A stretch of 64,000 nucleotides of DNA from Thermoproteota archaeon (GTDB lineage: Archaea; Korarchaeota; Korarchaeia; Korarchaeales; Korarchaeaceae): the NCBI GenBank assembly GCA_027491435.1, contig JAOZFG010000035.1, forward strand, positions 64,001 through 128,000, read 5' to 3'. The translations under genes were made by a program, and so were the position numbers. This document shows, piece after piece, positions 54,803-58,902 of the stretch (its first letter is position 1; each line of letters opens with the position of its first letter). The notes under the pieces are model-generated. The model did no database searches, was not told the DNA's origin, and saw only the letters and a program-made list of their open reading frames with translations.

Positions 54803-56205
54803 AGGAGCTTGAGCTTACTCAACCTATTTCTTGGCTTGACGGCGTTGATCCCAGGACTGGCAGGATAATTCAGGAGGGACATCCCCAGAGGGGGCAGTCC
54901 ATAGCTGGCAAGGTCCTGAGGATTCCCCACTCCTCAGGGTCCACGGTAGGGGCCTACATATTTTTCGCTTTGAAGGAGTACGGGACAGCCCCGGCCAAGA
55001 TAATACTGAAGAAGGCTGACAGCGTGACCATTTCAGCTGAATTAGCTGGCATTCCCGTGGAGATAGAGGGGGGCAAGGAGGTCAGGCTCGATGCTGAAGT
55101 CCCCGAGGAGTTCAAGAGATTCCTTGAGAGGGAGGCCTCCATAGTCGGAGCTGAGGAGTTCGTTAGAGTGAGATCCGTTCACGTCAGCGGGGTGTCTTAC
55201 GCCACCATCGGGGATTGGGGGAGGAAGTGGTTATCTAGGATAAGCGAGAGGGCTAAGGCCAAGGTGATTGCCACTTCCAATCCAGCCGGAATGGACATCT
55301 TGAATTGGAGGGAAATGGGGGTTCCAGAGGACTTCTCTAGGGGCCAGCTGGAGATAGTTGAATACCTGACGAGGATGGGGGTGATGCCCTCCCTGACCTG
55401 CACCCCATATTTAGCGGGCAACCTTCCCAGGAGGGGAGATCACATATCGTGGGGGGAGTCCAGCGCCGTTGCCTTCGCTAACAGCGTAATCGGCGCGAGG
55501 ACCAATAGGGAGGGAGGGGTGAAGACTATAGTGGCGGCCGTAACTGGATTAACTCCCAAGTACGGGATGCATTTGGATGAGAACAGGTTACCCAACTTGA
55601 GGGTTGAGGTTAGCTCCGAGGGATGGAGCTACCTGGATTACACGCTACTTGGATACCTTACAGGAGAAGAGAGCCCGTCTAGCGTCCCTTGTTACACGAT
55701 AACAGGGGAGCTAGATGATATAAAGGGTTTAGGGGCAGGAGGCGCTGCCTCCGGATCAATAGAGATGTTTCACTTGGGCTCCTGTCCAGTAGGCAGGACG
55801 CTGAGGTTCTCTCAAAAGGACTTGGAGGAGCTCAGGGAGAGGATGAGCTCCTTCGATGGCGGAACCGACCTCGTGGTAATAGGATGTCCTCACCTGTCCC
55901 TAAACCAGTTGAGGGAGATCTCCCTCAACCTACTGGGCAGAAAGGCGAAAGTGCCCTTCTGGTTGTACACCTCAAGGGCCGCTTTAGCCCAACTTCCCAG
56001 GTCCACTTTAGCCTCTCTGGAGAGGGCAGGCGTGAAAGTCTGGGCCGACACGTGCATGGTCGTCTCTCCTCTGGAAAGGATGGGCATCAGGAAGGTGACC
56101 ACAAACTCAGCGAAGGCGGCCAAATACTTGAGAAGTCTGAGGGGTTTAGACGTGGAGCTGTTGAGAATTAAAGAAATTGTAGAGAGGTACACTAGTCCAG
56201 CTTGA
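54799..56205 (+). CDS. Aconitase X as a fused small (swivel) + large subunit; probable phosphomevalonate dehydratase
   Basis: N-terminal [12 protein letters not shown]...HP..GQSIAGK...GSTVG. Then SGVSY, CTPY, ESSA, GCPH and DTCMVV with three Fe-S Cys. Confidence 0.85.
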
Positions 56206-57487
56206 GGACTTGCTTGTACCCCTCTAGGTCGAGGAGACCATGTCCTGAGTAGTTAAATAGGATCACCTTCTCTTTACCATCTTCTTTAGCTTTTAAGGCC
56301 TCATCTATGGCTGCCTTTACGGCATGAGCTGTCTCAGGAGCTGGTATTAGCCCCTCAACTTTAGCAAAAAGCGATGCTGCCTTGAAGACGTCCTCCTGCG
56401 GGTAAGCCACTGATCTTATCACCCCCTTGTTCTTCAGCAGGCTGACGGTGGGGGCCGCTCCGTGGTACCTGAGCCCGCCCGCGTGTATGGGCGGAGGAAC
56501 GAACTTATGGCCTAAGGTGTACATTTTTATCAAGGGGGTCGTCTCGGCCGTGTCCCCGAAGTCGTACCTGTATTCCCCGTTGGTAAGGGAAGGTGAAGCT
56601 GTGGGCTCCACCGCTACCACATCGTAGTTATCCCTGCCCTCAAGTATGTCCCTTATGAACGGGAAGACTAGCCCGGCGAAGTTGCTACCCCCTCCCACGC
56701 TTCCTATTAGGACGTCTGGCTTTTCGTCAATTGCTTCCATCTGCTTCTTAGCCTCAATCCCTATGACGGTCTGATGGAGTAAGACGTGATTCAGCACACT
56801 GCCCAGAGCGTACTTAGTCTTCTCGTCCTTTAACGCTGCCTCTATGGCTTCGCTTATCGCTATCCCCAGGGATCCCGGGTGTTCTGGATCCTCTTTTAAG
56901 AACTTCCTACCTACCTCAGTTAGCTCGCTGGGAGAGGGGACTACGTTAGCCCCGTAGAGCTTCATCACGTACTTCCTGTAGGGCTTCTGCATGTAGGATA
57001 CCCTGACCATGAAGACTAAGGCTTCAAGCCCGTTCATGGCCGTGGCGTAAGAGAGGGCGCTTCCCCACTGACCAGCTCCCGTCTCGGTGGTCAGCCTCTC
57101 CAGCCCCTCTTTAGAAGCGTAGTAGGCCTGAGCCAGCGCTGTGTTTAGCTTGTGGCTCCCGGTAGGGGACAAATCCTCCCTCTTGAAGTATATCTTTGCT
57201 GGCGTTCTCAGGTACTCCTCCAACCTCTTAGCCCTATACAAGGGAGTTGGCCTGCCTATTCTTAAGTAAAGCTCCCTTAGCTCGTCAGGTATTCTGATCT
57301 CCTTCTCTTTTGAGAACTCTTGGTCAACGCACTCCTTCACGAAGAGGGGGTAGAATGCCTCGGGTCCTAATGGCTCCTTGGTAGCGGGGTGCAACGGGGG
57401 CGGCAGGTCAGGCAGGTCAGCCACGATATTGTACCAGAACCTGGGAACTTCATCCTTTGGAAGGTCCACTCTGAGGGCTCCGGTCAT
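56192..57487 (-). CDS. trpB2: Tryptophan synthase beta chain, TrpB2 type
   Basis: WYNI, GRPTPL, SHKLN (PLP Lys), [24 protein letters not shown] and SGHGLLD. Confidence 0.95.
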
Positions 57488-57615
57488 AGGACCACCTCCA
57501 GACGCTTCAAAGTCGACAGCTGCCCTTCTCCTGAAGGAGAGTTTGCTGCGGTCGTCCTAGGCTCCTTAAAGAGTAGGGCCTGCATCAGGGAGAGGAGCTC
57601 AGGCAGAAAGCCAAA

Positions 57616-57630
57616 CTAGATCCCCCACAT
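57616..57630 (-). other. Met-Trp-Gly-Ile-stop minigene in the trpB2 leader
   Basis: GGAGGTGTCCT-ATG TGG GGG ATC TAG, starting 143 nt upstream of the trpB2 start. Confidence 0.6.
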
Positions 57631-57643
57631 AGGACACCTCCTG

Positions 57644-57721
57644 GGTGCGTTGCACTACGCACCTCTGTTTTCTTTAAAAAGTTTGCGTTCAGGCTGTTTA
57701 GCATTCCTTAAAATAAGGAAT
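57644..57721 (-). promoter_or_regulatory. trpB2 promoter region: TATA-like box and two inverted repeats
   Basis: TTTTTAAA at ~57673-57680 (minus strand); GGTGCGT-N6-ACGCACC at 57644-57663; ATTCCTTA-N3-TAAGGAAT at 57703-57721. Confidence 0.5.
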
Positions 57722-57769
57722 ACGAACTATACTGTTAACTATTTTTACTATAAGTAGTGAGTAGGGATT

Positions 57770-58033
57770 TTAGTACTCCTCCCCTTCCTCTCCCCAGAAC
57801 TCCTCGGTCTCCCACTCCATCTCTTCTTCCTCTTCCCAGATGTCCTCGTCTTCCCTCCAGGCCTCGTCTTCGATGCCTTCCTCTAAGAGGATAACTTCCT
57901 TAACCTCTCCTCCCTCGATGGTCACCTCGAGCAGAGCTCCGCACTTTGGGCACTGAACTTCCCCCTCGAATTCATCCTCATCGAGGAAGAACTCGTAACC
58001 GCATGACGGGCAGGTTATCTCCGGCACTGTCAA
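57770..58033 (-). CDS. LysW-like Zn-ribbon protein with extended acidic tail
   Basis: CPSCG...GEVQCPKCGALLEV core; C-terminus ...EEFWGEEGEEY. Confidence 0.7.
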   Translation of the reverse strand: MTVPEITCPSCGYEFFLDEDEFEGEVQCPKCGALLEVTIEGGEVKEVILLEEGIEDEAWREDEDIWEEEEEMEWETEEFWGEEGEEY

Positions 58034-58206
58034 CCCCGGGATGCTGAGGAGCCACCCATATATAAGCTTTCGTGAAGGGTTAGCTCTCTCTGAGGGTCTT
58101 TGTAAAGATGTAGGGGGCCCTTAAGACCATGTCGGGGACGCAACGATTATATCTGGAGTAACTCTCTGTCCATTGGCGTCCGGCGGGAGGGCAGGGATCT
58201 GCAGAG

Positions 58207-58902
58207 ATGCTAGCTCTAGGGGTCTCCGACGTCCATTCCCCAATATGGCTGAGAGAGTTGCAGGAAGAGGTCTCCAAGTGGGAGGACAAGGGCGTAGACC
58301 TCGTGCTCGTGGCCGGCGATTTAACCAATAAGGGGAATGTGGTTTATTATAGGAAGGCTATAAAAGTCCTTCTAAGGCTTGGCGCTAAAATAGTGGCAGT
58401 CTTTGGCAACGATGAATATGAGGAGGTGAAGGACAGGATAAGGAGGGATAACCCGGAGGTTATCTTCTTAGAAGATGAGTCGGTGATCTTGGAGCTAGGC
58501 GGAATGGAGGTCGGCATAGTGGGCTCTAAGGGGAGCTTGGAAACCCCCACCTCATGGCAGAGGAGGCACATCCCTGGAATAGAAGAAATTTATGAGGAAA
58601 GGGTAAACTTGGTGGGAGAGCTCTTGAGAGGACTTAAGTCCGACCTCAGGATATTGCTAACCCACTACGCCACCACCAGAGAAACCATGAGGGGTGAGAA
58701 TCCCAAGATATACAGGTTCCTAGGTCATAGGGGATATGAGAGGTACTTCAGGGAGGGGCTCGTCGACGTGGCAGTCCACGGCCACGTGCACAACGGAACG
58801 AAGGTTGCTAAGGTTGGAGGCACGATCGTTTATAACGTGGCGTTTCCACTTTGGAGGACCCTGGTGAAGATAGAGTATGGAGGGCTACAGCCCTTCTTCT
58901 AG
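58207..58902 (+). CDS. Calcineurin-like metallophosphoesterase
   Basis: SDVH, AGD, GNDE, THY and HGHVH. Confidence 0.88.
   Translation: MLALGVSDVHSPIWLRELQEEVSKWEDKGVDLVLVAGDLTNKGNVVYYRKAIKVLLRLGAKIVAVFGNDEYEEVKDRIRRDNPEVIFLEDESVILELGGMEVGIVGSKGSLETPTSWQRRHIPGIEEIYEERVNLVGELLRGLKSDLRILLTHYATTRETMRGENPKIYRFLGHRGYERYFREGLVDVAVHGHVHNGTKVAKVGGTIVYNVAFPLWRTLVKIEYGGLQPFF

Follow-up and report, generated by a model that had tools for sequence, protein, structure and literature searches.

We analysed the leader of trpB2, the gene for a stand-alone TrpB-like pyridoxal phosphate (PLP) enzyme, in a 64-kb stretch of the genome of a Thermoproteota archaeon of the Korarchaeaceae (GCA_027491435.1, contig JAOZFG010000035.1, positions 64,001-128,000). 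The whole stretch is called the window here, and coordinates are those within it unless another contig or locus is named. The leader, which is read on the minus strand, contains a short upstream open reading frame (uORF) with a single tryptophan codon. The GTT TGG C around this codon is a candidate site for a +1 frameshift, from which a stop-free frame leads to the start of trpB2. The leader is probably a translational tryptophan gauge, in which a hungry UGG codon would trigger the +1 frameshift and so couple translation to trpB2. The arrangement is conserved among relatives and is linked exclusively to two tryptophan genes, trpB2 and trpS. From it we infer that ribosomes shift frame at this site, that tryptophan supply governs the shift and that translation is thereby coupled to trpB2.

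Conservation of the uORF in trpB2 leaders

TrpB2 was found in 36 of 41 related genomes, the phylum of the window being represented by 43 species genomes. Within the genus we aligned 20 trpB2 leaders, including that of the window, and together with one more genome, G016, the comparison covers 21 genomes. A Shine-Dalgarno (SD) sequence, a start codon and the string GGG GAT YTA GTT TGG are common to all 21. In the relatives, the uORF reads ATG GGG GAT YTA GTT TGG CYN plus a stop codon and encodes MGDLVW[LP]* (the asterisk denotes a stop). The mean column identity of the 20-leader alignment is 66%, and 17 columns of the 18-nt block TGGGGGAT-TAGTTTGGC are invariant; its GTT TGG C is invariant in the 20 aligned leaders and is also present in G016. 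The uORF start is preceded in all 20 leaders by SD1 (GGAGGTG, GGGGGTG or GAGGTG) at a distance of 5-6 nt and by a TTTTWAA-type TATA box at a distance of 39-45 nt, and both SD1 and SD2, the ribosome-binding site of trpB2, are kept in the alignment. Codon 7 of the uORF varies among relatives (CTC, CTT, CTA, CTG or CCT), as does its stop codon (TAG, TGA or TAA). Considering that third positions are free and that stop codons are interchangeable, the short frame appears to be translated.

The uORF of the window starts with GTG at 57628, while the other 19 aligned leaders have ATG at this point. An initial annotation of this DNA had placed the sensor elsewhere, in a minigene with the sequence MWGI* that starts at ATG 57630. 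All the parts it listed, namely a TATA-like box, an inverted repeat, a ribosome-binding site followed by ATG-TGG-GGG-ATC-TAG, a spacer and a second ribosome-binding site with its ATG, lie on the minus strand at the places it gave. However, ATG 57630 is missing in 19 of 19 aligned congeners and in G016. As this ATG is an out-of-frame by-product of the spacer end ..TAT joined to GTG, MWGI* is not conserved. As such, when the relatives are compared, SD1, the long frame and the Trp codon at 57613-57611 are kept and the minigene ATG is not. The general idea of a tryptophan sensor read by the ribosome is backed by the comparison, with MGDLVWLSA* from GTG 57628 as the unit in place of MWGI*. The near-identity of the two ribosome-binding cassettes, which the same annotation had pointed out, does hold in the window (GGAGGTG twice) but is restricted to it among the relatives. 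Likewise, an inverted repeat as strong as that of the window exceeds shuffled sequences in only two of the 20 leaders, those of the window and L012. In genera g2-g5, which belong to the window's own family, trpB2 lies behind a ParB/SerK-like gene and is without such a leader.

Some further features of the region upstream of trpB2 were noted in relatives. In L019 and L021-L025 (genera g2-g6 and class relatives), the ParB/SerK-like gene (..PPKTTRHVL..) overlaps or abuts trpB2. In the distant lineages of L027, L029, L030 and L048, a palindrome-like TGTAYRTTTTTGTACA stands beside ..AAAGATTTAAATA.. upstream of the TATA box. TGTACAG precedes the TATA box in L003-L009 and is absent from the window; it recalls the TGTACA of the TRP boxes bound by the methanogen repressor TrpY.

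The stop-free +1 frame between the uORF and trpB2

When the 20 leaders were read from the GTT-TGG junction, the 710 codons contained 69 stops in the 0 frame, 41 in the +2 frame and none in the +1 frame. The 0 frame stops two codons past the site (four in the window, where the uORF ends about 110 nt before trpB2), and the +2 frame stops after 4-8 codons. In contrast, the +1 frame is open for 30-48 codons in 20/20 leaders. It ends in all of them in a TGA that overlaps the trpB2 start or comes directly after it, in the form of ATGA or [AG]TGCTGA, and does the same in G016. Between TGG and the trpB2 start lie 87 to 144 nt, with eight different lengths that are all divisible by 3. Over the same 710 codons the +1 frame contains TGG once, compared with 8 and 8 times in the other two frames. 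The peptide encoded by the +1 frame is not conserved, save where it overlaps the uORF and SD2. That the frame past the TAG stays open for 43 codons and ends in a TGA overlapping the trpB2 ATG had been seen in the window by the initial annotation; the frame is kept in relatives, and the comparison across leaders supports the coupling geometry that was read from its ATGA.

An internal start codon conserved for the +1 frame was not found among the 20 leaders, and L016 has no such codon at all. Directly upstream of the shift site, a TAG closes the +1 frame. Because of this TAG and the lack of a conserved start, the long frame of the relatives would be entered only by a +1 shift at GTT-TGG.

An antisense gene in the spacer was also considered. 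It was rejected because stops occur in all three antisense frames over the 20 spacers (14, 53 and 26).

A common layout of the proposed shift site

To describe the shift site we collected 147 sites: 20 from the trpB2 leaders of the genus, 2 from family f4, 109 from a second phylum and 16 from trpS leaders. All 147 share one layout, in which a G-rich hexamer is followed by 3 nt, NTT and TGG, and in 120 cases the next base is C. All 20 trpB2 leaders of the genus have GGGGAT as the hexamer and all 16 trpS leaders have GGTGAC, GGTGGT or GGTGAT, while CGGGAT, AGTGAT, GGGGCT and similar hexamers occur at the 109 sites of the second phylum. The hexamer resembles the SD sequences of the same leaders (GGGGGTG, GGAGGTG). 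At the trpS sites and that of L048, the NTT is CTT. In this genome, the conserved codons belong to the minor ones (GAT 35%, GTT 23%, CTA 14%, TTA 11%), which argues that the constraint acts on nucleotides and not on the peptide. The peptides themselves differ between leaders, with GDLVW, GDLLW, GDFLW, GGSLW, RGSLW and DCFW as the variants.

In the window's own genome, the strict motif has one match only. With a relaxed motif, the whole genome gave 15 matches, of which 5 lie in short-ORF contexts, 3 of these inside other ORFs. Only two relaxed matches are found in intergenic leaders, those of trpB2 and trpS. Seven extra 12-mer matches were fetched from five genomes of the second phylum; one is a trpS leader, and the others lie at gene ends or inside other frames.

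Leaders of this kind also precede trpB2 in other lineages. In L029 and L030, from another family of the window's phylum, the uORFs encode MRDNVW.. and MMRDRVW.., and their +1 frames comprise 45 and 58 codons and end at distances of 2 and 29 nt from the trpB2 start, respectively. In L048, from a metagenome-assembled genome (MAG) labelled Micrarchaeota, the site reads ..AGG GGT TCA CTT TGG.. and the +1 frame ends 1 nt before the ATG.

The second phylum comprises 133 species genomes, many of them complete, and TrpB2 was found in 101. From 69 loci, 46 were anchored, and with L026 a total of 47 leaders were analysed (L026, L112-L157); the 23 loci left out comprise 22 without a tblastn match to the short gene stub and one without a start codon. 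Sites are present in 41 of the 47 leaders, and they are chained: 30 leaders have three, 8 have two, 3 have one, and in 6 none was found by the criteria used. Within a chain, each site's +1 frame serves as the 0 frame of the site that follows (..AGTGAT TGT TTT TGG C.. and alike). For genus g16, 29 of 30 leaders (L026, L112-L140) have ATGA on trpB2 as the end of their last +1 frame, the exception being L124, for which the frame assignment failed. The trpB2 leaders of this phylum also contain a conserved TTATTCCCTC-N3-TTTGGG box of no clear role, 30-55 nt before the start.

The element in front of trpS

The second leader in the window's genome lies on contig C5, where ATG CCC TCG GGT GAC GTA TTT TGG TGA (MPSGDVFW*) precedes a gene for tryptophan--tRNA ligase (TrpRS; NF008924, 723.6 bits with a cut-off of 644). 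The +1 frame of this uORF is the trpS reading frame. We obtained trpS loci from 17 of the 21 genus genomes, 16 of which include upstream sequence (L189-L204), and all 16 have a uORF of the type M[TP]GD[LF]LWP*, MQGGSLW.. or MPSGDVFW*. As the UGG is one base out of the trpS frame, a +1 shift would enter trpS in 16/16. In the second phylum, locus L182 (genome G037, positions 300-400) has a MPGDCFWPW* uORF before trpS, and the +1 frame of this uORF extends over 29 codons, stopping 14 nt inside trpS.

In L198-L203, which belong to genus g1 and have the MQGGSLW type of uORF, the stretch from the shift site to the conserved EFKVTPW N-terminus contains no ATG, GTG or TTG. The sole alternative start is a GTG inside the hexamer, which is 13 nt from SD1 in L198, L199, L201 and L202, the leaders with a plain SD1. 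Synthesis of TrpRS in L198-L203 may depend on the frameshift, following the logic of RF2 autoregulation.

With regard to the trpS gene itself, the TrpRS of the window's genome (G000 C5:181079-182188) is 79% identical to that of the second-phylum locus L182, far above what is expected for the distance between the phyla, and the gene may have been transferred together with its leader. A second paralogue, 35% identical, is encoded on contig C1.

Proposed mechanism

Based on these observations, we propose the following course of events. Ribosomes recruited by SD1 would begin translation of the short frame at GTG 57628 (MGDLVW...). With plentiful Trp-tRNA(Trp), the UGG at 57613-57611 would be read and translation would terminate a few codons on, well short of trpB2. 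Under a shortage of charged tRNA(Trp), the A site would stay empty at UGG, and the peptidyl-tRNA(Val) on GUU would slip by one base onto UUU, aided by the GGGGAU located 3 nt upstream. The shifted ribosome would then cross the spacer in the stop-free, Trp-poor +1 frame and terminate at the UGA of the AUGA on the trpB2 start. The gene would be switched on by termination-reinitiation, by ribosome cover of the leader, or by both. Polarity, that is, premature termination or decay of a ribosome-free spacer, is a possible alternative to reinitiation. Where sites are chained, two or three successive shifts would be needed to reach trpB2, which would give a steep response.

The chance seems evenly balanced that the same principle is general, in the sense that several archaeal phyla use hungry-codon recoding switches composed of an SD-like element, 3 nt, NUU and the sensed codon, in which a +1 shift would activate the matching biosynthesis or aminoacylation gene.

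Several points weigh against the proposed gauge and should be read together with it. The SD-like pairing of the hexamer is deduced from the genome's own SD sequences, since the 16S 3' end was not found. The tRNA(Val) with anticodon GAC would, after the shift, re-pair with UUU at two of three positions only. Competition for initiation may come from the window's out-of-frame ATG, which precedes the GTG of the uORF by 2 nt. The openness of one spacer means little by itself, as a single spacer was open in the +1 frame in 4-18% of trials with dinucleotide shuffles; the weight therefore lies in the repeated conservation over spacers of varying length. Even so, the genus genomes are kin, so that the counts overstate independence. 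The SD2 of trpB2 is strong, and its predicted pairing does not exceed that in shuffled spacers, with a mean z of +0.28 in 19 genus leaders and of -0.29 in the second phylum (12 of 14 leaders, two having no usable site), which leaves the off state under plentiful tryptophan unexplained. The accessibility of SD2 over 19 leaders, calculated at 37, 65 and 80 °C for a free uORF and for one covered by a 28-nt ribosome footprint, changed in no consistent direction. As such, folding with and without the footprint gave no support to a switch built on the anti-SD-like tract and the inverted repeat that the initial annotation had seen in the spacer.

Alternative explanations

Could the ribosome simply stall at the UGG of the uORF, without any frameshift, so that the pause relieves RNA structure, premature termination or polarity? 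A uORF with a strong SD and one invariant Trp codon would suit this explanation, and bacteria are well known to rely on leader peptides that contain regulatory codons. One such leader was found before trpB2 in L042, from a Bacteroidales MAG, where a classical leader peptide contains three consecutive Trp codons (MTHHFTYNRWWWHFKSEGS*). However, plain stalling leaves unexplained the stop-free +1 frame, the spacers in multiples of 3, the ATGA ending and the chained sites, as well as the identity of the +1 frame with the trpS frame in 16/16 leaders. RNA signals of the kind it would use were not found either. No terminator was predicted on the minus strand, the single candidate on the plus strand being the inverted repeat read backwards; no folding switch was consistent among leaders; and an Rfam scan of 56900-58400 at E <=10 gave no match to Trp_leader (RF00513) or T-box and returned nothing but whalefall-1 (E 3.4) and psaA (E 5.2), which score well short of their gathering cut-offs. 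We therefore regard plain stalling as unlikely. The conserved long frame and its ATGA ending could instead serve to deliver ribosomes to trpB2 without sensing tryptophan, through overlapping uORFs with non-canonical initiation or through a frameshift of constant ratio, and set-ratio frameshifting is a known class according to a review (PMC8211752). Such delivery would not call for UGG as the A-site codon at 147/147 sites or for the restriction of the element to trpB2 and trpS, three-site chains would make little sense, and the long frame is without a conserved start codon. Constant delivery is thus a rather improbable account.

The remaining explanations take the conserved block in a different way. 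The recurrence of G/R-D-x-V/F-W in trpB2 leaders of several lineages would agree with a nascent peptide, [GR]-D-x-[VF]-W, that arrests the ribosome from within the exit tunnel in the manner of TnaC and senses free tryptophan. Yet these residues are not kept in the trpS leaders (GDLLW, GDFLW, GGSLW) or in L048 (RGSLW), while the nucleotide layout of G-rich hexamer, N3, NUU and UGG is kept and third codon positions are fixed on minor codons. In addition, a stall at high tryptophan would need a separate repression logic, and the +1 frame would be left unexplained, so that an arrest peptide is very unlikely. We hold it to be just as improbable that the block is an untranslated operator, either a protein-binding site or a ligand-binding motif in the RNA. 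Its 17 invariant columns are indeed more conserved than the flanks, but an SD at 5-6 nt, the start codon, the variable codon 7 and the interchangeable stop indicate translation, an operator does not account for the frame relations to trpB2 and trpS, and no Rfam family matched. As for the MWGI* minigene, it would sense tryptophan at its own UGG, or readthrough of its UAG would lead into the long frame. SD1 lies 4 nt upstream of its ATG, its frame is that of the long frame and is broken only by the TAG, and AUGUG sites can start both frames in E. coli (PMC9841429). Against this, the ATG is present in the window only (0/19 aligned congeners, and G016 lacks it), and no start precedes the TAG in that frame in congeners. 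The readthrough proposed in the initial annotation is not supported either, as in 20/20 congeners no start codon opens the frame upstream of the TAG. The minigene is hence extremely unlikely to be the sensor. Taken all together, the sensing of charged tRNA(Trp) by a +1 frameshift at GTT TGG C is the explanation that we favor.

Features of the leader and genome setting

The features of the trpB2 leader and of the trpS uORF are collected in Table 1. Judging from the usual archaeal spacing to the TATA box, transcription would start near 57650.

Table 1. Coordinates of the trpB2 gene, its leader elements and the trpS uORF
Feature	Position	Strand	Remarks
TATA-like box TTTTTAAA	57673..57680	minus	identified from sequence; putative leader promoter
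Inverted repeat GGTGCGT-N6-ACGCACC, 7 bp	57644..57663	minus	between TATA box and SD1
SD1 GGAGGTG	57635..57641	minus	ribosome-binding site of the upstream reading frame
MWGI* minigene ATG TGG GGG ATC TAG	57616..57630	minus	+1 frame; closed by TAG 57618-57616
0-frame uORF GTG GGG GAT CTA GTT TGG CTT TCT GCC TGA	57599..57628	minus	MGDLVWLSA*
Internal SD-like hexamer GGGGAT	57620..57625	minus	3 nt before shift codon
Proposed +1 shift site GTT TGG C	57610..57616	minus	Trp codon 57613-57611; shifted reading would be UUU GGC
+1 ORF FGFLPE...LEVVL*, 43 codons + TGA	57484..57615	minus	whole spacer; TGA overlaps trpB2 ATG (ATGA)
SD2 GGAGGTG	57493..57499	minus	trpB2 ribosome-binding site; inside +1 ORF
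trpB2	56192..57487	minus	431 aa, start ATG at 57487; gene taken as regulated
MPSGDVFW* uORF	G000 contig C5, L188:1303-1329	minus	trpS ORF L188:138-1319

The product of trpB2 belongs to the TrpB2 family by its scores against NF009057 (696.6 bits, cut-off 366) and TIGR01415 (682.3 bits, cut-off 518.85). The TrpA, IGPS and TrpE families gave no match in this 99.5% complete genome, while all 14 control genomes gave matches, and trpB2 is accordingly the sole tryptophan-synthesis gene found in the genome. The organism appears to depend on outside indole or tryptophan. TrpB2 would here make tryptophan from scavenged indole, by analogy with TrpB2 of T. kodakarensis, whose use of indole (Hiyama 2014) is cited in PMC11085991.

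Upstream of the leader, the minus strand of the window encodes an 87-aa zinc-ribbon protein (57770-58033), which has weak LysW-like matches and a very acidic, Trp-containing C-terminal tail. No tRNA genes were found within the window, and neither tRNA(Trp), searched with ARAGORN, nor the 16S 3' end, searched with sequence patterns, was found in this assembly.

Significance and comparison with known systems

Little is known of the post-transcriptional means by which archaea sense amino acids. If the proposed gauge operates as described, charged tRNA would be measured in a new way, with a change of frame as the signal in place of an RNA hairpin switch. A general class of such switches in archaea would further bring the first programmed frameshift with a regulatory role among their cellular genes and the first natural productive use of starvation-induced frameshifting. 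The design would be modular, with tandem chains of sites giving an ultrasensitive response. Gene callers would overlook the uORFs as well as the true start of some trpS genes, and the annotated starts of L198-L203 may be wrong. A 2021 review of archaeal recoding lists one cellular frameshift, fucA1 (-1), besides viral cases and a suggested Mg-chelatase case (PMC8211752). Our full-text searches, the scope of which did not extend to supplements and subscription journals, yielded no description of such a leader. For productive natural hungry-codon frameshifting, a 2016 review states that "no examples are known" (PMC5009743).

Among known systems, the element recalls bacterial prfB. A short first ORF and a shift on NUU followed by U would be common to both, and the GTT TGG C of the window corresponds to the prfB pattern of a shift codon (YTT), a codon with initial T, and C. 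The prfB shift happens when the factor that decodes the A-site codon is scarce, and the same would apply here. In prfB the stimulator is located 3 nt from the shift codon. Here, the G-rich hexamer, a candidate stimulator, has the same distance, the 16S 3' end that would pair with it not having been found. The consensus of the +1 site of prfB is given as CTT_TGA_C with an upstream SD-type stimulator in PMC3711429. The likeness extends to the trpS leaders, where the +1 frame is the gene itself in 16/16 and where TrpRS makes the Trp-tRNA(Trp) whose lack would trigger the shift. If so, the element as a whole would be a sense-codon counterpart of the prfB circuit, and for trpS a true counterpart of RF2 autoregulation. 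The systems differ in that the A-site codon is a stop in prfB and the sense codon UGG here, in archaea, and in that the +1 frame of the trpB2 leaders encodes no conserved protein and merely brings ribosomes up to where the next gene begins. The element would thus work like prfB, but its sense codon in the A site sets it outside the prfB family.

Slow sense codons do drive +1 shifts elsewhere, as in starvation frameshifting in E. coli and in yeast Ty1, whose site is CUU_AGG_C with a slowly decoded A-site codon (PMC5009743). The P-site tRNA shifts on NUU in Ty1, driven by AGG, and would do so here, driven by UGG, but the tRNA for the Ty1 codon is constitutively rare and the ratio of shifted ribosomes is fixed. 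In ermCL, a fraction of ribosomes shifts within a leader ORF, and their translation into the spacer permits initiation downstream (PMC5009743). This is close to what we propose for trpB2. In ermCL, the trigger is a drug, a ketolide, is largely independent of the peptide and acts through unfolding of the mRNA. For trpB2, a dedicated site would respond to how much of one aminoacyl-tRNA is available, and the folding tests detected no structure that masks SD2 (mean z values given above).

The attenuators of trpL and pheL share with the present leader an upstream mini-ORF whose Trp codon, in the case of trpL, reports charged tRNA(Trp). While frameshifting in pheL is judged incidental in the same review (PMC5009743), it would be the read-out itself in trpB2. 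With one Trp codon instead of tandem codons and with no terminator or antiterminator, the trpB2 leader is not a trpL-type attenuator. It differs from TnaC as well, in that conservation is found in the nucleotide layout and not at the amino-acid level. As for the final step, translation was strictly coupled in 13 of 14 gene pairs tested with ATGA and TGATG overlaps, 9 of them archaeal (PMC6728339). The upstream partner in the trpB2 leader is not a gene, as in those pairs, but a frame that would be reachable only by recoding.

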